Origin: an uncultured delta proteobacterium
GTDB taxonomy: Bacteria; Desulfobacterota; Binatia; Binatales; Binataceae
Assembly: GCA_963711565.1 (NCBI GenBank)
Contig: CAVQEQ010000003.1
Coordinates: forward strand, 1,408,001-1,472,000
Direction: 5' to 3'
DNA length: 64,000 bases
The position numbers and the translations under genes were made by a program. Each line of letters begins with the position of its first letter. The first letter of the stretch is position 1. Shown piece after piece: positions 26,033 through 42,107 of this stretch. The notes under the pieces are model-generated. The model was given only the letters and a program-made list of their open reading frames with translations, did no database searches and was not told the DNA's origin.

Positions 26033-26696
<664 letters not shown>

Positions 26697-26750: not shown

Positions 26751-27125
26751 TTATTCGAGGGTCAGACCTGCGTGAGCCGCAAAGTTGCGAAAATCGCGGT
26801 CGCGCGTGACCAGCGCGACTTCGTGGTCAATACACGACTGGGCGATAAGGCTGTCGGCTAAGCGCGCCTTGAGACCTCGGCGCAGAAGACGCGCACGGAG
26901 TTCACCCGCACGTTCCCAGTAGCCGTCAACAATTTCAAGCCGCGGCACAGCGCGAATCAGAGTTCCAACCTCGGAACGAAGCGCGGGATCGCTCAGGAGT
27001 TCAGTCACCACCACCGGCGGAAAAATGCCCTGGCGGAACCGCAGCGCTTCCTCGACTGCGGCCACGTCCCTCCCGCGCTCGCCCGACAGGAAGGCGATGG
27101 TGGAACTGGTATCGAGAGCAATCAT
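26751..27125 (-). CDS. vapC: PIN-domain VapC toxin
   Basis: LDTS, ELL, LADSLIAQSC, LVTRDRDF. Confidence 0.88.
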   Translation of the reverse strand: MIALDTSSTIAFLSGERGRDVAAVEEALRFRQGIFPPVVVTELLSDPALRSEVGTLIRAVPRLEIVDGYWERAGELRARLLRRGLKARLADSLIAQSCIDHEVALVTRDRDFRNFAAHAGLTLE

Positions 27126-27334
27126 CTTCGGTCTTGCCGCAGTTCGCGCAAATCCACCGAGAATTTCACCTTGCCGCGCATTTTCAGCAGACCGTCGTAA
27201 GCTTCGCCGGCCGCCAGCAATTCGAGTCCTTTGCGCACCGTTTCGCTGACCCCGGCGCGAGCAGCTCTTTGCGCCTTGTTCAACAATTCACTGCGAACGT
27301 GCACGGTAATTTTTCGCTCGGCTTTCATTGCCAT
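27122..27334 (-). CDS. Putative VapB-like antitoxin
   Basis: Small basic ribbon-helix-helix-like ORF (KITVHV..ELLNKA..SETVRKGL) overlapping the vapC start by ATGA. Confidence 0.75.
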   Translation of the reverse strand: MAMKAERKITVHVRSELLNKAQRAARAGVSETVRKGLELLAAGEAYDGLLKMRGKVKFSVDLRELRQDRR

Positions 27335-27417
27335 AAGCATACCAGAATTCGATGCCGTAACTATATATGGCTATTGGAGGGAGACTTACGTCGCATCGTC
27401 GAGCGATGCGCGCAACG

Positions 27418-28491
27418 CTAGATCTGATACACGAACAGCTGCTGTTCTTTGGGTCTCAGGAACACGTGGGCACCCGTTTCCAGGTGCAGCGTCTGGTAGT
27501 GCTCGTGGCTGATTTCGACTTGCACCATGTCGCCCCATTCGGCGACCAGCTCGACTTTGACCTGCGGGCCGGCGGGGTTGATCGTCTTCACGGTGGCCGG
27601 GAACGTCTGCTTGCCGTTGGGCTGCATCACGATTTCCAGCAGATGCGGCCGCACGTACAGCACCGCCTTGCCGTTCTCCGCCGGATGCGCGTGGGCGTGG
27701 GTATTGTCGAGCTCGACGGCGGTGTCGCCTAGGAACACGCGCCCGTTCTCGATTCGGCCGTGGAAGAGGTTCACGTTGCCCAGGAAGTTGTACACGAAGG
27801 CGTTGGCAGGATGGTGATAGACTTCCTCGGCCGTGCCGATCTGCTCGATACGTCCCTGGTTCATCACGACGATACGATTGGCGAGTTCGAGCGCCTCTTC
27901 CTGGTCGTGCGTGACGAAGACGCTGGTGATTTTGATCTCGTCGTGCAGCCGCCGGAGCCATCGGCGGAGTTCCTGACGGACCTTGGCGTCGAGCGCGCCG
28001 AACGGCTCGTCCAGCAGCAGGACTTTCGGCTCGACGGCGAGCGTGCGCGCGAGCGCGACGCGCTGGCGCTGGCCGCCGGAGAGCTGCGAGGGATAGCGGT
28101 CCGCGAGAAAGTCGAGCTGCACGAGTTTCAGCAGCTCATGCACGCGCCGCGCGACTTCGGTCTCGGCGGGACGCTCACGCCGCGGCAGCACGCGCATTCC
28201 GAAGGCGACGTTTTCGAATACCGTCATGTGGCGAAACAGCGCGTAATGCTGAAAGACGAAGCCGACCTTGCGCTTGCGGACGCTGACCGCGCTCGCGTCC
28301 TCGCCATGGAACAGCACCTCGCCGGTGTCCGGCGTTTCCAGTCCCGCGATTATTCTCAGCAGCGTGGTCTTGCCCGAGCCTGACAGCCCCAGCAACGCGA
28401 CGAGCTCGCCGGTTTCGATGTGCAGGTTGATATTGTCAACCGCAACGAAGTCGCCGAACCTCTTGCTGATGTTTTTGAGCTCGATACTCAT
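27418..28491 (-). CDS. cysA: Sulfate ABC transporter ATP-binding protein
   Basis: [42 protein letters not shown] tail. Confidence 0.93.
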
Positions 28492-29372
28492 GCCGCAACT
28501 TTGACCGCCAGGTCGTCCTGCTCCTGCTTCACGGGAACTACGCGGCGCTCGAGGTAATACTTGGCGATGAGCGTCGCGATCGCGAGCAGGGTGAGCAGCG
28601 ACGAAACCGCAAACGCAGCCGCGAACTGGAAGTCATTGTACAGAATCTCGACGTACAGCGGCATCGTGTTGGTATGCCCGCGGATATGCCCCGAAACGAC
28701 CGAGACTGCTCCGAACTCGCCCATCGCGCGCGCGTTGCATAACACCAGCCCATAAAGCAGCCCCCACTTGACGTTGGGGATCGTCACGCGAAAGAACATT
28801 TGCCAGCCGCCTGCGCCCAGCACGATCGCGGCTTCTTCTTCCTCGCTGCCGACCGCCTGCATGATCGGAATCAGCTCGCGCGCGGCGAGTGGAAACGTCA
28901 CGAAGATTGTCGCGAGCACGATGCCCGGCTCGGCAAAGATGATCCTGATGCCGTGATCGGCGAGCCATCCGCCGAGCGGCGCGCGCACGCCGAGCAGCAG
29001 CACGAACAGCATCCCCGCGATTACCGGCGAGACCGAGAACGGGATGTCGATCAACGTCAGCAGGGTTTGCTTGCCGGGGAAATCGAAGCGCGCGATTGCC
29101 CATGACGCGGCGATGCCAAAAGTAACGTTGAGCGGCACCGCGATCGCGGCGGTCATCAGGGTCAGGCGAATCGCGGCGCGAGCCTCGGGATCGACGATCG
29201 CCGCGAGGTAAGCGCCGAGTCCATTCTGCAGCGCTTCGGTAAAGACCGCGATGACCGGGATGAAAATAAACAGCGCGACGAACGTCAGTGCGGTCGCGAT
29301 CAACGCGATTCTGACCGCGGGCGGATCCGCGGTCCCGGGCCTCTTCGGCGTAAATTCGGACTGGGTGGCCAT
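28488..29372 (-). CDS. cysW: Sulfate ABC transporter permease
   Basis: [35 protein letters not shown]; start ATG 29372. Confidence 0.93.
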
Positions 29373-29380
29373 CGCGAAGG

Positions 29381-30208
29381 TCAGGCCGCCAGCCGGCGGC
29401 TGCTCCACCTTTGCAGGACGTTGATGCCGAGCAGAATCGCGAATGACGCCGTCAGCATCACGACCGCGATTGCCGTGGCGCCGGCGTAGTCGAACTGCTC
29501 GAGCTTGCTCATGATCAGCAACGGCACCACCTCGGTATGCATCGGCATGTTGCCCGAGATGAACACCACCGAGCCGTATTCGCCGAGTGCGCGCGCGAAT
29601 GCGAGCGCGAATCCGGTGAGCGACGCCGGAATCAGCGCGGGCGCGATCACCAACATAAAGGTCTGCATCCGGCTCGCGCCGAGCGTCGCCGCCGCTTCCT
29701 CGTATTCCTGATCGAGATCCTCGAGGACAGGCTGGATCGTGCGGACGACGAACGGCAGTCCGACGAAGGTGAGCGCGACCACCACACCGAGCGGCGCATA
29801 CGCGACTTTTATTCCAAGCGGCGCGAGGTACCGCCCAATCCATCCGTTGGTCGCGTAAATCGCGGTGAGCGTGATGCCCGCGACCGAAGTCGGCAGCGCG
29901 AACGGCAAATCGACCATCACGTCAATCAGTGTCTTGCCGGGAAATTCGTAGCGGACGAGGCTCCACGCGACGACGAATCCGAAGATCGAGTTGATCAGCG
30001 CGCCGGCAATCGAGGCGCCGAAGCTCAGCTCGTACGCCGCGATTGTGCGCGGACTCGCGACGGCAGCCCAGAACTGAGGCCAGGTCAGGGTGAAAGTCTT
30101 GAAGAAGATCGTCGAGATCGGAATCAGCACGACGATGCCGAGGTAGGCGAGCGTGAAGCCGAGCGTCAGGCCGAATCCCGGCAGCACGTTGTTCCGTCTC
30201 GTTGCCAT
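29381..30208 (-). CDS. cysT: Sulfate ABC transporter permease
   Basis: VLPGFGLTLG, DLPFALPTSVAG, ARALGEYGSVVFISGN. Confidence 0.93.
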   Translation of the reverse strand: MATRRNNVLPGFGLTLGFTLAYLGIVVLIPISTIFFKTFTLTWPQFWAAVASPRTIAAYELSFGASIAGALINSIFGFVVAWSLVRYEFPGKTLIDVMVDLPFALPTSVAGITLTAIYATNGWIGRYLAPLGIKVAYAPLGVVVALTFVGLPFVVRTIQPVLEDLDQEYEEAAATLGASRMQTFMLVIAPALIPASLTGFALAFARALGEYGSVVFISGNMPMHTEVVPLLIMSKLEQFDYAGATAIAVVMLTASFAILLGINVLQRWSSRRLAA

Positions 30209-30232: not shown

Positions 30233-31264
30233 CTAACTTCCCGGCTGATATATCTTGTCGAATACGCCGCCGTCGCCGAAGAACTTCGGCTGCGCCTTTT
30301 TCCATCCGCCGAAATCCGCGTCGATCGTGAGCATCGGCAGGCTCGGGAATTTGCTTGCATACTTCGCGGCGACGGCCTTGTCTTGCGGACGGAAGAAATT
30401 CTGCGCGACTATTTCCTGTCCCGCCGGCGTGTAGAGAAATTCCAGGTACGCCTTCGAGATCGCCTCGGTACCGTGCTGCTTATCCACCTTGTCCACCCAT
30501 GCGACGGGCGGCTCGGCCTTGATGCTCAGCGACGGATACACGACCTCGAACTTGTTGGCGCCAAAATCCTTGATCGCCATCCCCGCCTCGTTCTCCCACG
30601 CGATCAGCACGTCGCCGATTCCGCGCTCGACAAAGGTAGTCGTTGAGCCGCGCGCACCGGAATCGAGCACGGGCACGTTTTTGTAAAGCGCACTGACGAA
30701 CGCCGCGGCCTTGGCCTCGTCGCCGCCGTTCTTCTTCAGGGCGTAGCCCCACGCCGCGAGGAAATTCCATCGCGCGCCGCCAGAGGTCTTCGGATTCGGC
30801 GTGATCACCGAGATGCCCGGCTTCACCAGGTCATCCCAATCCTTGATGTTTTTGGGATTGCCCTTGCGCACCAACAGCACGATGGTCGAGGTATAGGGGC
30901 AACTGTTATCGGGGAGCCGCGATTGCCAGTCCGCGGGCAGCAAGCCCGCCTTGTCGACGATCGCATCGATGTCGCCCGCGAGTCCCAGCGTCACGACGTC
31001 GGCCTCGAGGCCGTCGATGACCGCGCGCGCCTGTTTGCCCGAGCCGCCGTGCGATTGGTTGATCGTAACGTCGTCACCGGTCTTTGCTTTCCAATCCTTG
31101 ACGAACTGTGCGTTGACGGCCTCGTAGAGTTCGCGGGTCGGATCGTACGAGACGTTGAGGAGCGTGATTTGAGCGGCGCGCGCGGCGCCGATGCCAAGAG
31201 CAACGCTCGCCGCCAAGGTGATGGCGGCGAGCGTATGTGTGAATTTCAATTTGCGACCGAACAT
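30233..31264 (-). CDS. sbp: Sulfate/thiosulfate-binding periplasmic protein
   Basis: [40 protein letters not shown]. Confidence 0.93.
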
Positions 31265-31271
31265 TCTCACC

Positions 31272-32783
31272 TCAGAAGCAGATCTGGAGTTGCGACTCGA
31301 TGACGCTTTCGTTGGGCCGGTCCTTTACGTCGGCGGTCGTGCCAGCGCCGCCATTGAAGTAGGTATTCGCGTAGTCGGTCTGCCACTTGATGTTGGCAGT
31401 CAGGTACCAGTTGACGCCCAACGCAAATTCGGTGGCAGTTTTCGCGGACGCACTGGGACTGGCGAAATCGAGTTGAAACTGCCGGCTGTCCGCAGCGACG
31501 TTGCTGATCCTCGCCGCAAGCTCCCATGCGCCGAACCATCCGTTGCGCGGGTCGAACGGATGAAGCGGCTTGACCCAACCATAAGACGCGTTTTCGCCGG
31601 TCAACAGGTAGGAAGCCTGCGCGAAATAGCCAGTGTCGGTGAAGGTGTCGGTCCGGTTGATGAGCCGTTTGGTCGGACCGCTCCCCAAAGTGGTGAACAG
31701 GTTGAGCGAATGCTGGTCTTGCGCGTATTCGGCCATCAAGCCGAAGGGACCCACGTAATAGTAGGCCTGAGGCTCGAGACGCGCGCGCAATCCGGACGCG
31801 GTCACGCCCTTGCCGGGTGTGAACCAGGTGCTCGCGCCGTAGGTCTTGTAGCTCGAAATCGTGCTGCCGCGCTCATCGCCGTAGGAACCGGCGAAGCCGA
31901 AGCCCAATCCCTTGAGCCACTGGTTCTCGGTGAGTTCGAACGGCGTAGCGAAGATGCGTCCGACGAAATCTTTGCCGTCGTTGTTGTCGATGTCGGTAGT
32001 GTCCGCGGCAGTGTTGTCTGGCACTCCATTCATCAGCGCGGCGTCGTAGTAGAGGCGGCGGTCAAGAAGTTCACCGTGCAGGTCGGCGCCAGTGTCGCGG
32101 TTCGGGATCAGATTCTGGATCTCCGAGCGCTCGCTGAATTCGAGATCGCGATCCGACTGCAAGCGCTCGAGATCGAGCGGCGCCTTGAACTTCCCGGCCC
32201 TCAGGCTCGCATAGTCCCAATAGGTCATATTGATGTAGGCGTCCTGCAACGTGACCTTGCCCTGGCCGAAGTCGGGCGTGATGTTGAAGTTGTAGTACTT
32301 CGCGACCGAGCCCGTGATGATCGGGCGCACTCGGTTGAGGTAGAACGTGCTGCTGATGTCCTTGTCGCTGCCGCTGGTGAAGAAGCGGCCGTCGGCCTGG
32401 ATGATTCCGCCGAAATTAATATTGTAGTCGTGGTTCGGTGAAGAGAGAGAGAAGCCCTCTTCGCCCACCTTGACGACCGGCATCGTGACCGACCGCGCCT
32501 GCTCCGTCTGGGTCTCGACGTTGATCTTTTGGGCCTGCACGTTGAGTTGCTGGCCCTGGACGTCGACCTTTTGATCGATCACTTTCACTCTCTGATTCAG
32601 CCCTTCCAGCGTGTCGACCCTCGACTCGAGTTGCCTGATTTCAACCTTAAGCAATTCGATCTCCTGATCCTTCCGATCGGCGGAAGGCTTCGACTGCGCA
32701 TGCGCCGGGCCGGCGGCAAAAGATACCGCGGTAATTACCGCCGCCAGCAACACCGGCAGCATCGGCAAAGTGCATTTTCTCAT
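31272..32783 (-). CDS. OprO/OprP-family anion-selective porin
   Basis: Signal peptide, coiled coil, [31 protein letters not shown]-terminal Phe. Confidence 0.85.
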
Positions 32784-32896
32784 CTCGGAAGCCCCTCATC
32801 GTATTGGGAACTTCCGGATGTCCGGTCAGCTCGCGATTGTCGATTGACAGCTCTGTCATGGCGCACCCGGATCCTTACCTGGTCCGGGCTCCTCCC
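32776..32896 (-). repeat. Leader copy 1 (upstream of porin), direct repeat of 33785..33906
   Basis: Shares aacttccggatgNccggtcagctcgcg, catggcgc, ccggatccttNcctggtccgg, ctccc with copy 2. Confidence 0.85.
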
Positions 32897-32931
32897 TGGA
32901 TTTTTATATTTTCAATGTCGTGCGCGACTCG

Positions 32932-33792
32932 TCATTTGATGCAGCCGCCCGGCTGGTTGTTGGTTGCCCCCGTGAAGTTGCCAAACCATTTGTTGCTGCC
33001 GCAACTCGAATTCGCGTCGTACAGGTCGTCCTTCGAATTGCTGCCCGCCGCTGTCTCTGTTTGGTTGGTTATGATCGAGGTCTTGGCGCCGATATCGAGC
33101 GCGACACCGTAGTTGGTATTGCCCTGGATGTTTCCCGTGAAAATGTAGTTGCCTGGTGACGGGCCGACACCCGTGCATCCGGCGCCGATCGGTCCGATAG
33201 CGGAGCATCCTACGTACAGGCCAATGTTGAGGTTGCTCTCGGTCTTGGAATTGGTGACGTCACTGGAAGAGGTTTGCTTGAGCCATATCCCGTAGTTGTT
33301 ATTAGTCTCTGCCGTCGTGTTGGTCAGCTCAACGTCCGAGGCCTTGTTCAGCTCAACGCCTGCGGTCCCGTTACTATTCGCTGAGGCGTCGTCGGCGACG
33401 ATTTGCCTGCCCTGGATCAGCAAGCCAACGTCCCACCCGCTTATCACCGAGCCGCGGAAGCCGAGAAAGTCCAAGCGGTAGGGATGATGAACCCAGACCC
33501 CGATCCCGGTCGGGGTCGTGCCGCCGGGGCCGGTGATGTTTTTCTTCGCGCCGTCAAGGATCACGAAGCTCGAGGCGATCTCGATACACGCGCCGGCTGG
33601 AGTAAGTCCCTGCGTCGAATTGATTGCCAGCCCAAGTTTGTACGAGCCCGGCGACACAATCGTGCATCCGCATGCATTGATCGTCGGAGTGCAAGCGGTC
33701 TGGGCCGAGGCCGCCGCCGGCATCATAAAGCCTGCGACAATCAGCAGTGTCGGCATGACCCACTGAAAAAGGAGCGTAACGCGGTTTCTCAT
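32932..33792 (-). CDS. Secreted right-handed parallel beta-helix (NosD/PbH1-like) protein, 8 Cys
   Basis: Signal peptide ASA-Q; repeated N..GV/GI.L motifs (NGTAGVEL, NNNYGIWL, NTNYGVAL). Confidence 0.75.
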   Translation of the reverse strand: MRNRVTLLFQWVMPTLLIVAGFMMPAAASAQTACTPTINACGCTIVSPGSYKLGLAINSTQGLTPAGACIEIASSFVILDGAKKNITGPGGTTPTGIGVWVHHPYRLDFLGFRGSVISGWDVGLLIQGRQIVADDASANSNGTAGVELNKASDVELTNTTAETNNNYGIWLKQTSSSDVTNSKTESNLNIGLYVGCSAIGPIGAGCTGVGPSPGNYIFTGNIQGNTNYGVALDIGAKTSIITNQTETAAGSNSKDDLYDANSSCGSNKWFGNFTGATNNQPGGCIK

Positions 33793-33906
33793 CTCAAAAG
33801 TCCCTCGTCGTCTTGGAAACTTCCGGATGACCGGTCAGCTCGCGGTTGGTGTTGACGGCTCTATTCATGGCGCGCCGGATCCTTCCCTGGTCCGGTGTTC
33901 CTCCCC
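33785..33906 (-). repeat. Leader copy 2 (upstream of beta-helix gene), contains a 24-aa uORF at 33794..33868
   Basis: Direct repeat of 32776..32896; uORF MNRAVNTNRELTGHPEVSKTTRDF*. Confidence 0.85.
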
Positions 33907-33951: not shown

Positions 33952-34149
33952 TTACCCGCGACTTGTCTTGTCGAAGCGAAATTTTTCTTTGCGCTCGATC
34001 TGCACGACTCGCGAGTCCTGGATCACGACCTCGACCGAGCCGAAGCGCACGCCGCTGATTGCATTCGCGATGCGCCGCAGGATGTCGTCGCCCGTCTCGG
34101 GCTCGGATTGAGCATCGCGACGGGTTATCAGGGGCGAGTCTGCTTTCAT
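33952..34149 (-). CDS. YezD/DUF2292 (OscA-like) small protein
   Basis: VRFGSVEVVIQDSRVVQIERKEKFRF signature; typical position in sulfur operons. Confidence 0.88.
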   Translation of the reverse strand: MKADSPLITRRDAQSEPETGDDILRRIANAISGVRFGSVEVVIQDSRVVQIERKEKFRFDKTSRG

Positions 34150-34152
34150 AAT

Positions 34153-34177
34153 CTATCCTATTAGGTGACTAGACTAA
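34153..34177. promoter_or_regulatory. Candidate Rrf2 operator, copy upstream of yezD
   Basis: ctatcctattaggtgactagactaa, 18/25 identical to the site at 34674. Confidence 0.55.
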
Positions 34178-34202: not shown

Positions 34203-34661
34203 TCAGATCGCGAAACTCAACGATTCATTGCCGGTAACCACCGCCTCGACGCGCTTGAGCATGTCCTCGAGCGAGGTCGAGTCCATAATCTTCGCGGTCG
34301 CGTCGCGAACTTCCTTCATCACTAATCTGATCCCGCAACTCCGCTCATCGCGGCACTCGCGGCATCGCATGTATGCCGTCTTGCTGACGCATGGCAAAGG
34401 TGCGATTGGTCCGTCCAGCACGCGTACAATGTGCCCCACGCTGATCTGACGAGGCTCGCGTCCGAGAAAGTATCCCCCGCCCTTGCCCTTCTTGCTCTGC
34501 AGGAGTCCCTGGTTCTTGAGCTCGAGCAGGATCAGTTCGAGAAACTTGCGCGGGATACCCTCGCGCTGCGCCAAATCAGAGATGAGCACGGGTCCCTGTC
34601 CGTATTCCTTGGCCAAAACCATCATCGCCTTGAGTGCGTATTTCGACTTCTTCGAGAGCAT
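34203..34661 (-). CDS. Rrf2 family transcriptional regulator
   Basis: SKKSKYAL, IPRKFLELIL, SKKGKGGGYFL, C-x8-C-x2-C-x5-C. Confidence 0.92.
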   Translation of the reverse strand: MLSKKSKYALKAMMVLAKEYGQGPVLISDLAQREGIPRKFLELILLELKNQGLLQSKKGKGGGYFLGREPRQISVGHIVRVLDGPIAPLPCVSKTAYMRCRECRDERSCGIRLVMKEVRDATAKIMDSTSLEDMLKRVEAVVTGNESLSFAI

Positions 34662-34673
34662 TTGATCAACGGG

Positions 34674-34720
34674 TTAGTCGATAGGGTGGCTAGACTAAAG
34701 ATCGCGAGGAATTCAGTCAA
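34674..34720 (-). promoter_or_regulatory. Sigma70-type promoter of the rrf2 operon overlapped by a palindromic operator
   Basis: TTGACT (34720-34715)-N17-TAGTCT (34697-34692); TTAGTC-N13-GACTAA at 34674..34698. Confidence 0.6.
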
Positions 34721-39981: not shown

Positions 39982-40515
39982 CTACTGAGCCCTGCATACG
40001 GTGGCAGAGACATTGTTCTCGGTGGTATCAATCGCGCGAAATTGAGCGTCGGCGACGCCGTCAGCGCTGGTAAAGGCAACTGCAAGTGGGCAATTGCCGC
40101 TGGTAGTGCTGCCGGGATTGATATAGCCCGTCGTATTGTCCGCGCTGATACAGTAATTTAGTGTGCCCTGCGAGGCGAAATCTTTATAACTGGGGCTCGA
40201 ATTCGGATCGTTGGTATTCTGCGCCTCGATTACGCTGACCGTGCCGACGCCCCCGCCGTTGCTAGTGAAGCTCACGATCACCAGGTCGACCTTGGGATAC
40301 CCGTTGCCGTCGAGGCCGACCCCGGTGCAGCTATACGAACCGCTGATGGTCACCGTCCCGGTGCTGGCGCAGGTAGGTGACGGCGAAGGGCAAGGGTTGC
40401 TGCTCTGCGCGCCGGCGGTGCCGGTCAGGATGGTCAAAACAAAAACAACCAGGCAAGCTTTTCTCACCGTGAGTTTCCCCAAACTTTGAGTTGCGGTCTG
40501 AAGATTCTGTCGCAT
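39982..40515 (-). CDS. Secreted 6-Cys protein of unknown function (paralog of 41651..42107)
   Basis: Signal peptide AGA-Q; CPSPSPTC, GSYSC, YKDFA, NYC, CPLA, C-terminal C; start uncertain. Confidence 0.7.
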   Translation of the reverse strand: MRQNLQTATQSLGKLTVRKACLVVFVLTILTGTAGAQSSNPCPSPSPTCASTGTVTISGSYSCTGVGLDGNGYPKVDLVIVSFTSNGGGVGTVSVIEAQNTNDPNSSPSYKDFASQGTLNYCISADNTTGYINPGSTTSGNCPLAVAFTSADGVADAQFRAIDTTENNVSATVCRAQ

Positions 40516-40542
40516 CGTATTCGTTGCGGCTAGCCGCACCTC

Positions 40543-41637
40543 CTAATTCAACACCGGTCCGTAAATGTTGAGTATGTTCGGCGACGGAGTTGGCGATGGC
40601 GTCATACTTGACGACGATGTGCCGGTCGGAGACGGCGTCGCGGAGATCGTCGGCGTCGCCGTCATAGTCGAGGACGACGTCGGAGTCATGCTCGGCGTCG
40701 CTGTGATGGTTAACGTTGGCGTCGCGGTCAGGGTTGCCGTGGCGGTTGCCGTTGGCGTCGCGGTCCGCGTCGCCGTGGATGTGGCGGTAGAGGTTGGCGT
40801 CGCAGTCATCGTCGTCGTGGCGGTTGCCGTCGGCGTCGGAGAGGTCACTGCAGTACCGAATGCGACGCCGCTGAGTTTTACCTTTTGCGGCGACTTTAGT
40901 GCGTCGTCGGCGATCTCCAGGCTTCCGCTCACCTTGGTTCCCCTGGATTTGCTTGCGCTGACCGGATTGAACGTCACTGAGACCTGGCAGTTGGAACTCG
41001 CGGCCAGCGAGCTGTCGCAGCTATTGGTTGTTATGGAGAACGGGCCCGAAGGCGTGATCGAGGTGATGGCCAATGCGACGGAATCAGGATTGCTCACGGT
41101 TACAGTTTTGGCGCTCGAGGCGGTATCGACGGCAACCTTGCCGAACGAGAGCGAAGACGGCTTGATCGCGATCTTTCCCGCCACCCCGGTCCCCGTCAAG
41201 GCGATCGATTTGAGGGTGGCATCGGCGGAATCGCCAATAACCAGGCTGGCCGACCTGGAGCCGAGCGCGGTGGGAGTAAAGGTCAGCGTCACGTCGCATC
41301 CGCTCCCGGGCGAGAGCGTCGCGGTGCAATTGGTGGTGGAGCTGAAGTCTCCCGGGTTGGCGCCGGTGATCTGAGAAGTCAATTCGGTGACGGTGGCCCC
41401 ATCTTTCGGATTCGAGATTTTAACCGTCTTGGTCGGGCTGGTTGCCCCGGTGACTCCGAACACCTCTTTCTTAAATTTGATCTTGTCAGGCGAAACCGTG
41501 AGACCTTTCGAGGCCGCCATGACCACCGACGCGGATGCTATGATGGTCAAAAGCGCGATGGGTACGATTATCGCGCCGGCGATCGCATAAACCGCGTGCG
41601 CTCGCCAACCAATCGGCCAACGAAATCGATTGTTCAA
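40543..41637 (-). CDS. Secreted protein with two choice-of-anchor-D (Ig-like) domains and Thr/Pro tail
   Basis: TTG start after GGGAGG; two P..L.F...V.N...C...C...F.P...L.G.G units; (TPTATA)n tail. Confidence 0.8.
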   Translation of the reverse strand: MNNRFRWPIGWRAHAVYAIAGAIIVPIALLTIIASASVVMAASKGLTVSPDKIKFKKEVFGVTGATSPTKTVKISNPKDGATVTELTSQITGANPGDFSSTTNCTATLSPGSGCDVTLTFTPTALGSRSASLVIGDSADATLKSIALTGTGVAGKIAIKPSSLSFGKVAVDTASSAKTVTVSNPDSVALAITSITPSGPFSITTNSCDSSLAASSNCQVSVTFNPVSASKSRGTKVSGSLEIADDALKSPQKVKLSGVAFGTAVTSPTPTATATTTMTATPTSTATSTATRTATPTATATATLTATPTLTITATPSMTPTSSSTMTATPTISATPSPTGTSSSSMTPSPTPSPNILNIYGPVLN

Positions 41638-41650
41638 CCGACCCTCCCGC

Positions 41651-42107
41651 CTATCGAGTGCAAAGGAGCGCGTCGGCGTAGTTCTCGGCGGTGTTGATGA
41701 TCCGGACTTCGTGGTAAGAATTGTCGACAACCATCGCGAGCGGACAGCCTCCGGCCGGGTTAGTGATGAACAGATAGCCATTTCCTGCGGTGTTGAGACA
41801 ATAAGTACCGGATACGCTCGCGGCAAAGTCGCTGTAGGTGGTGGTGCCGCCCGAATCGTTGTTCTGTGCCTGGTTAACCACGGTGAAGTCTCCAGTACCG
41901 TTTAAGGTGACTACTGCCACACTGCTGCCGGAGACGTTGGAAGAATTGGTTTTGATCTCGACGCATACGTAGGTGCCGTCAAGATCGGCCAAGGTGGTGG
42001 AGGAGCTGGTCGAGCAGGAAGGAGTGGGCGAAGGGCACGTCTGGGCGTAGGCGCCTGCTGCCGTTGAACAGGAAAAAGACGGCAAACAAAAGCAGAATCT
42101 TCTTCAT
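41651..42107 (-). CDS. Secreted 6-Cys protein of unknown function; +1 frameshift near 42065 in the signal peptide
   Basis: ATG 42107 gives MKKILLLFAVFFLF, one base out of frame with TAAGAYAQTCPSPTPSC. Confidence 0.7.

Follow-up and report, generated by a model that had tools for sequence, protein, structure and literature searches.

Conserved hairpins behind yezD, one before each of two genes in a Binataceae sulfate operon, as a candidate YezD-dependent RNA switch

In the antiterminators of the BglG/SacY/LicT type, a CAT domain in the protein is paired with a RAT hairpin in the RNA. The ANTAR regulators EutV, NasR and AmiR are associated with RNAs made of two hexaloops with A1 and G4, joined by a linker of 5-12 nt (ANTAR passages of PMC3369931). 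A link of the small protein OscA/YezD to sulfur starvation and chromate resistance has been on record since 2009, and in Pseudomonas oscA is linked to sulfur starvation and cotranscribed with a sulfate-binding protein gene (PMC3596284 and PMC2996968, citing Viti 2009); the passages on OscA in these two papers give neither a molecular function nor an RNA target. The locus analysed here lies in a stretch of 64,000 nucleotides (the window) from an uncultured delta proteobacterium of the Binataceae (genome G000; GenBank assembly GCA_963711565.1, contig CAVQEQ010000003.1, labelled G000:C3, positions 1,408,001 to 1,472,000), in which a yezD gene stands in a sulfate operon with two diverged copies of one leader. 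Comparison of these leaders with their relatives suggests that YezD likely binds the leader hairpin, opens the ribosome sites and turns on translation of a porin and of a beta-helix protein, a reading to which a probability of roughly 0.6 is given.

The operon is read on the minus strand in the order rrf2, yezD (33952..34149), leader, beta-helix gene (32932..33792), leader, OprO/OprP-family porin gene (31272..32783), sbp, cysT, cysW and cysA, with family matches to Rrf2 PF02082, DUF2292 PF10055, Beta_helix/NosD, Porin_O_P and sulfate-binding protein. The first-pass annotation of this DNA had described the regions before the porin and beta-helix genes as diverged direct repeats, and BLASTN bears this out on the minus strand with 84.6% identity over 123 nt, the leaders being the sole two copies in the 4.84-Mb genome and the repeat reaching into the first 8 coding bases of both genes. 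Both copies also hold, as reported, a GGAGG, a CCGGA-CC...GG-A-TCCGG hairpin (hairpin A) and, at a distance of exactly 76 nt from the gene ATG, an upstream ATG (33868 and 32859). According to the folding, each leader is composed of three elements, all on the minus strand: hairpin A, which is family-specific (33875..33895 before the beta-helix gene, 32867..32887 before the porin gene); a core hairpin with a GA/A internal loop, the predicted ON fold, at a distance of about 33 nt from hairpin A (33817..33841 and 32808..32832); and a longer alternative stem, the predicted OFF fold (33790..33829 and 32781..32820), in which the 3' arm of the core pairs with the Shine-Dalgarno sequence (33801-33806 and 32792-32797) and the AUG and which is mutually exclusive with the core hairpin. 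The annotation had highlighted hairpin A, which is present in both copies but confined to this family, and had read the core as coding; the core is the widely conserved part, but it is conserved as an RNA hairpin, and both this and the exclusive stem over Shine-Dalgarno sequence and AUG had been overlooked. Since a divergent leader (L250) has a canonical CCAG/CTGG hairpin at the position of hairpin A, the latter is probably a derived first copy of a tandem motif. The core pattern matches twice in the window, against 0.02 matches expected by chance. A promoter and terminator scan stayed at chance level, with no terminator in either window leader. RNA runs contained less than a tenth of the sequence words, and a 207-nt contig from an RNA library, identical to 33679-33884, came without strand or ends, and nothing was inferred from it.

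The core belongs to a hairpin family found beyond the genus. A profile built from 111 YezD sequences led to 567 confirmed genome loci, of which the best 80 were taken; their conserved unit is RCY-GA-CCRG-N4/5-CYGG-A-RGY: a lower stem of 3-4 bp, a GA/A internal loop, a CCRG/CYGG upper stem and a loop of 4-5 nt (4 nt in 69 and 5 nt in 7 of 78 instances). This unit stands either about 21-35 nt ahead of a start codon or on the 5' arm of an intrinsic terminator. Up to 300 nt downstream of yezD, the strict pattern was found in 58 of 78 loci (2 short loci dropped), with 0 matches on the reverse strand and 0 upstream; with one mismatch allowed, it was found in 71 of 79 public loci downstream, in 5 on the reverse strand and in 3 of 77 upstream. 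For loci L046-L109 (Nitrospirota, Acidobacteriota, Planctomycetota, Pseudomonadota and others) this relaxed pattern was present in 55 of 63, and 17 of the 63 have two or more matches, tandem copies starting about 41-68 nt apart with a spacer that is not conserved. The 32 downstream proteins scanned, of 52 extracted, include 27 in five unrelated families (15 OprO/P porins, 5 alginate-export-family porins, 3 Sbp, 3 TonB receptors and 1 TOBE protein); the other 5 have no family assignment. A loose pattern matched 42 of 60 genomes, many by chance inside genes; the matches were inspected in part, and the pattern was set aside as a co-occurrence test.

When both partners of the inner pair were left free, G-C was found 33 times, A-U 12 times, G-U twice and other combinations three times (n=50), and the lower Y-R pair was C-G in 27, U-A in 21, U-G in 19 and other in 3 instances (n=70). 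When 76 of the 78 instances were aligned (the other 2 have 6-nt loops), two-sided changes were seen at 6 of 8 pairs, and the score was attained by 0 of 500 shuffles; the rows had been selected by a pattern that already requires upper-stem pairing. The wobble pairs, together with the strand bias, point to a conserved element that acts as RNA rather than as DNA. A DNA palindrome for a dimeric transcription factor (Rrf2 or YezD) would explain why CCRG-N4-CYGG is an inverted repeat at the DNA level; with a strand bias of 58 against 0, U-G wobble in 19 of 70 lower pairs, a spacer of either 4 or 5 nt, overlap with terminator arms and ribosome sites, and a separate conserved box that makes a better Rrf2 site, this explanation is regarded as highly improbable.

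A cis-regulatory RNA at yezD loci, as had been proposed from the window, is supported by a hairpin conserved beside yezD across phyla and without an Rfam match: Rfam 15 gave 0 matches in the window, which leaves the proposed novelty in place, and in 21 related loci searched at E<=5 no family reaches its gathering score. A match to BjrC68 (24 against 39 bits) was driven by the terminator and was rejected. In the full-text literature searched, neither the hairpin nor a function of DUF2292 is described, although the supplements of PMC5737381 and PMC11109978 may list the motif, and DUF2292 is absent from the main texts of the motif-discovery papers searched and from one supplement. Judged from sequence comparison, the hairpin would be a real conserved RNA switch, a new family on known logic with a strong candidate protein partner.

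That this partner could be YezD, as also suggested earlier, is supported by genomic association. In the class around a Nitrospiraceae genome (G188), 14 of 61 genomes have yezD, and the hairpin lies behind yezD in all 14, in the strict form in 6 and in the relaxed form in the other 8; the 47 yezD-less Nitrospiria, searched by the strict pattern, which caught 6 of the 14 positives next to yezD, gave 2 matches, both inside genes. Of 24 relatives within the genus, which bear the labels Candidatus Binatus or Binataceae, 18 proved to have yezD. All 19 yezD loci, window included, carry the leader, and in 10 of them it occurs twice, flanking the beta-helix gene. Five of the six yezD-less genomes of the genus were searched and four have sbp, the contig of the fourth starting inside this gene; in three, rrf2 is followed straight by the porin gene, without yezD and leader, and the conserved box stays. 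Because two of these three are sisters nested among yezD carriers and the third is distant, the absence of yezD and leader would represent one clear loss plus one loss or ancestral absence. At the yezD-less locus L159 (G023:C209:2840), the porin appears to open with MKA, as at the beginning of yezD, joined to the signal peptide of the porin, which would mark a deletion junction. In genome G103, hairpin copies are found about 25 and 32 kb from yezD.

The default state of the window leaders is predicted to be OFF, because the 3' arm of the core can pair over the Shine-Dalgarno sequence and start codon instead. Folded without constraint, the two leaders adopt the OFF stem, at -41.9 and -47.8 kcal/mol; when the core hairpin is imposed, the values are -35.6 and -41.4. 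With the core imposed, the AUG is unpaired with a probability of 0.61 instead of 0.00 in one leader and of 0.41 instead of 0.01 in the other, and the Shine-Dalgarno region with a probability of 0.38, up from 0.15 and 0.11. Addition of public and metagenome loci (80 loci listed of 160 metagenome matches) gave 113 distinct leaders, of which 104 were assigned to porin or beta-helix genes; in these, at least 9 of 10 OFF-stem pairs are present in 101 of 104, against 33 of 2080 shuffled tails, the stem ends 2 nt before the start codon in 96, and the core stem forms at a median cost of 2.8 kcal/mol. In the 29 genus copies beside yezD, the OFF stem is 99% paired. For 44 distant loci (10 more were skipped because no start lies 15-45 nt away, and 1 as a duplicate), the ribosome site is easier to open with the hairpin imposed, the cost falling by a mean of 2.44 kcal/mol, against 0.96 (maximum 1.34) for chimeras and 0.18 for shuffles, and the effect exceeds 2 kcal/mol in 24 of the 44.

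Six copies elsewhere overlap the 5' arm of intrinsic terminators, and the genes that follow are those of a nitrite/sulfite reductase, metK, a NarK transporter, a nifH-like gene (a partial sequence with 334 bits against a cut-off of 394) and two without family assignment. Copies of this type stand before metK in L140 (G103:C14:331231) and before the nitrite/sulfite reductase gene in L026 (G164:C1:285867). In L355 (G209:C8:27180-28080) and L349 (G250:C63), yezD, hairpin and terminator lie right before the nifH-like gene and the NarK transporter gene, which suggests that the module is used for nitrogen genes too. In the computed folds, the hairpin is mutually exclusive with the terminator or the ribosome-site stem, as is characteristic of protein-dependent RNA switches, and the window locus is predicted to be the translation-level version, with one copy per gene. 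Such an exclusive hairpin, single or tandem, could also work as a riboswitch, a small aptamer whose ligand is a sulfur metabolite or anion, in agreement with the invariant letters of its internal loop, the use of both terminator and ribosome-site platforms and the tandem copies in 17 of 63 loci. However, the hairpin has about 21-25 nt with a variable loop, the tandem spacer is not conserved, one sulfur ligand does not explain its presence before nitrogen-metabolism genes, and the tight tie to a single protein gene is left unexplained, making an aptamer improbable.

According to the reading preferred here, that of YezD acting on the leader hairpins, sulfur shortage would lift the Rrf2 repression and YezD would be made first; YezD, probably as a dimer, would then act on one or two hairpins, and the YezD-bound core hairpin would displace the OFF stem, freeing the Shine-Dalgarno sequence and AUG of the porin and beta-helix genes, whereupon the long envelope and transport genes would be released at a second checkpoint after transcription. 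In a broader form, for which the odds are put at about even, the DUF2292/YezD/OscA proteins would be new minimal RNA-binding activators with a fold unlike that of known antiterminators, and the 21-nt hairpin a portable switch working against a terminator or a ribosome-site stem, recruited across many phyla for sulfate uptake, S-adenosylmethionine (SAM) synthesis, nitrate uptake and nitrogen fixation; in Binataceae, the switch would have been duplicated for individual genes and combined with an upstream open reading frame (uORF) that is conserved in frame and tunes it. If true, this would add a new protein-RNA regulatory family of 5327 representative proteins (at E<=0.001), a post-transcriptional layer in sulfur assimilation across many phyla and a very small portable on-switch; the defined 21-nt target and the two readouts make the molecular function of OscA/YezD testable.

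Several observations weigh against YezD acting through the hairpin. No hairpin lies near yezD in 8 of 79 loci, nor in L023 and the Paenibacillus locus L024, the one locus found in the plasmid search; since such loci exist, YezD may have other roles besides the hairpin. The joint absence of the adjacent yezD and leader can result from a single deletion, and both the restriction of the yezD-less Nitrospiria search to the strict pattern and the choice of the covariation rows by a pairing pattern belong here as well. In the 29 genus copies, changes in the OFF stem are one-sided in five pairs and two-sided in none, and 54 of 500 shuffles reach the pairing level of OFF stem and hairpin A together, which is not significant. 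Among the 44 distant loci, 9 show an effect below 0.3 kcal/mol and no competing structure, about half of them Methylococcales; a first run with 12 nt of coding sequence in 48 loci gave a mean of 1.77 and a median of 0.69 against 0.83 and 0.55 kcal/mol, and the longer folding window of the 44-locus test was picked after long Nitrospira stems were noticed. In sequence and fold searches, moreover, the YezD fold clearly resembles no solved RNA-binding protein (best Z 2.7 and 4.6), although the lack of a solved relative does not show a new fold.

The yezD loci without hairpin, the 9 loci without competing structure and a YezD-hairpin link resting on genomic association would also suit a real RNA switch bound by a general host factor, or a processing or stability signal, with yezD merely co-regulated and co-located. 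On the other side, intergenic strict matches number 0 in the 47 yezD-less Nitrospiria against 6 of 14 yezD-positive ones, the pairing of yezD and hairpin persists when the downstream genes become narK or nifH-like, and the three yezD-less operons of the genus are without leader. Taken together, a host factor is judged unlikely, and YezD is retained as the candidate binder of the hairpin.

The YezD protein of the window (65 residues, a candidate RNA-binding activator) matches DUF2292/YezD (PF10055) with 61 bits against a cut-off of 22, while for the OscA equivalog NF033785 it reaches 56.7 bits against a cut-off of 85. It is predicted as one helix followed by two strands (alpha-beta-beta, pLDDT 79), and a protein atlas search returned DUF2292 clusters only. 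Among the best 150 homologues, 25 are natural proteins with two such domains in tandem, and the predicted fold of one reaches a pTM of 0.71, which suggests that YezD acts as a dimer. Tandem DUF2292 proteins (P0124, P0127-P0130, P0139 and others) have 95-131 residues, most of them ending in G-x-x-G-D/E-G-I, and a similar tail also ends some single-domain YezD proteins (L026, L029).

The two uORFs remain to be considered. As the first-pass annotation had it, both read NRELTGHPEV with the differences AAC/AAT and GGT/GGA; that of the beta-helix leader (33794..33868 (-), 24 residues) stops 1 nt before the gene ATG, its frame and stop varying among beta-helix leaders, and that of the porin leader (32647..32859 (-), 70 residues), with CGA, overlaps the porin start out of frame, its start and frame being conserved in porin leaders and its residues not. 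The proposed conserved leader peptide did not hold up. In the 29 genus copies beside yezD, the set used for this count as invariance in the larger set is partly built into the search pattern, the codons CCG, GTT, GAG and CAT are each identical in 29 of 29, whereas an L has changed to P in 5 of these copies. Relatives differ at residues 2-9 and 19-21, and identical bases are translated in one or the other of two frames depending on the relative (MNRAV and MTEPS types, with compensating frameshifts). Because core codons are fixed at synonymous sites while L-to-P occurs, other residues vary and two frames are used, the peptide NRELTGHPEV is, as far as these alignments tell, a by-product of RNA conservation. 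Conservation of the uORF itself is borne out in porin leaders, where an in-frame ATG is present in 55 of 59, at 64, 70, 73 or 76 nt in 54 and always in the same frame, and is weaker in beta-helix leaders, where the frame is kept in 29 of 45, across all three frames; the ATG columns are about 90% conserved.

The preserved start and single frame in porin leaders are what would be expected if the uORF were the regulator, translating ribosomes stalling or passing and so choosing the fold as in leader-peptide attenuation. Set against this are the residues varying outside the RNA core with compensating frameshifts, the looser frame in beta-helix leaders, a distant relative (L047) that has the hairpin without such a uORF, the same core preceding terminators in other phyla, and the lack of any run of Cys or Met codons in the uORFs such as defines a leader-peptide attenuator (Cys occurs at one position in 1 of 41 porin uORFs); regulation by the uORF is accordingly held to be very improbable. 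Its translation may nevertheless matter, and the out-of-frame porin uORF is probably a family-specific tuning device in which the passage of ribosomes counts and the peptide does not. With hairpin A looped out, the GGAGG before it (32887-32905 and 33895-33905 (-)) would come to lie 8-10 nt from the ATG of the uORF, an arrangement resembling a split ribosome-binding site; this GGAGG is moderately conserved in relatives. In L020, L021 and L022, from other families of the class, the GGAGG of the hairpin 3' side is followed 6-7 nt on by an ATG out of the porin frame, possibly a second kind of overlapping uORF.

The duplication is predicted to give the beta-helix gene a switch of its own. This gene encodes a protein of 286 residues with a signal-peptide-like N-terminus and is found in 10 of the 19 yezD loci of the genus. 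In L047 the order is yezD, hairpin, beta-helix gene (48% identical), hairpin and porin gene, the rest of the leader being gone, and among relatives the letters that distinguish porin from beta-helix leaders are kept. The beta-helix gene with its own hairpin occurs in two separate parts of the porin tree; a test on this tree rejects a common clade for all beta-helix carriers, L047 among them (p 4.6e-5), and does not reject one beta-helix clade within the genus (p 0.108). The beta-helix cassette would be old and often lost, or gained at least twice, and either way each gene keeps a hairpin. A second leader copy that is a neutral leftover of the beta-helix gene insertion would be in line with the inclusion of the first 8 coding bases of both genes in the repeat, as duplication predicts, and with the looser uORF features of the beta-helix copies. 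Core and OFF stem are intact in beta-helix leaders, however, and L047 keeps the hairpin before both genes though its other leader sequence is gone; with the core kept in other genomes, the neutral duplication that had been named as the alternative is not borne out and is considered barely credible.

Upstream of the leaders, the Rrf2-family regulator (34203..34661 (-)) has CymR as its best named model, below the cut-off of that model. A conserved box upstream of rrf2 (34675..34698 (-)), a likely Rrf2 operator similar to boxes kept in relatives, has a second copy between rrf2 and yezD (34154..34177 (-)), kept also in relatives without yezD, the consensus of these rrf2-flanking boxes being TTAGTCTAG-N4-CCTAT-N-GA-N-TA-like. 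A third match at G000:C1:766221 (-) lies ahead of a sulfur-scavenging gene cluster (a DUF1329-type protein, taurine dioxygenase and sulfonate monooxygenases), near a second Rrf2 paralogue (62% identical), cysK, cysE and a cysteine desulfurase gene, all named by sequence without a family scan; no hairpin copy was seen at this cluster. These boxes likely mark an Rrf2 sulfur regulon.

Downstream of the porin gene follow, on the minus strand, the gene of the sulfate-binding protein Sbp (30233..31270), a family match, and cysT, cysW and cysA of a sulfate ABC transporter (27418..30208), named by sequence and position without a family-library scan. In some relatives (L165, L174, L037 and several long-read genomes) the porin, sbp or beta-helix genes have frameshifts, probably assembly errors. 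After cysA, a small gene pair at 26751-27340 (-) resembles a VapBC (PIN-domain) toxin-antitoxin module, named by sequence, and an msrB-like gene at 26033-26696 (-) is split by a frameshift into two open reading frames, the relative G007 (L157) having a single one of 220 residues. Further away, at 39982-42085 (-) and 40543-41826, two alike small Cys-containing proteins without a Pfam match, apparently secreted, are encoded near an Ig-like (ASH/Cep192-type) protein with a long Thr/Pro repeat.

Among described systems, the closest in setting is OscA of Pseudomonas corrugata (NF033785), which belongs to the same Pfam family, is encoded at the same site before sulfate-uptake genes and is linked to sulfur starvation and chromate in the passages cited above. 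The sul1 RNA motif (PMC5737381) and attenuators with Cys codons in a uORF, such as uORFC-8-2 (PMC8632094), are likewise candidate cis-elements before sulfur-related genes; the window leaders differ in matching no Rfam model and in having a uORF without tandem Cys codons. With the ANTAR systems (PMC3369931, same passages) are shared a small hairpin overlapping a terminator arm, sites that are often tandem, an expected dimeric protein and nitrogen-metabolism genes among the targets. However, the conserved letters of the YezD-linked hairpin lie in the stem and GA/A internal loop, its loop has 4-5 nt, and its tandem copies start about 41-68 nt apart; in the window leaders the two-hexaloop arrangement is missing (the 6-nt loop of hairpin A has A or G as first letter, and U as fourth in the window porin copy), and the gap of about 33 nt between hairpin A and core exceeds the ANTAR linker. 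The ANTAR domain PF03861 was not found in YezD, which at E<=0.01 matched PF10055 alone, and an ANTAR protein search gave no match in G000, nor in any of 14 control genomes.

With the CAT-RAT pair of BglG/SacY/LicT, the locus shares a hairpin of roughly 25-30 nt with an asymmetric internal loop, weak alone and unable to coexist with a structure downstream of it, a small binding domain that probably acts as a dimer and a regulator gene adjoining its target. The RNA sequence differs, most YezD-linked copies precede ribosome sites rather than terminators, and YezD has no visible sensor domain; neither a CAT nor a PRD domain was found in it by Pfam and NCBIfam scans, and a solved CAT domain is not among its listed structural matches, the best of which have Z of 2.7 and 4.6. 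By analogy, the logic of the proposed YezD switch would be that of the ANTAR and BglG/SacY systems.

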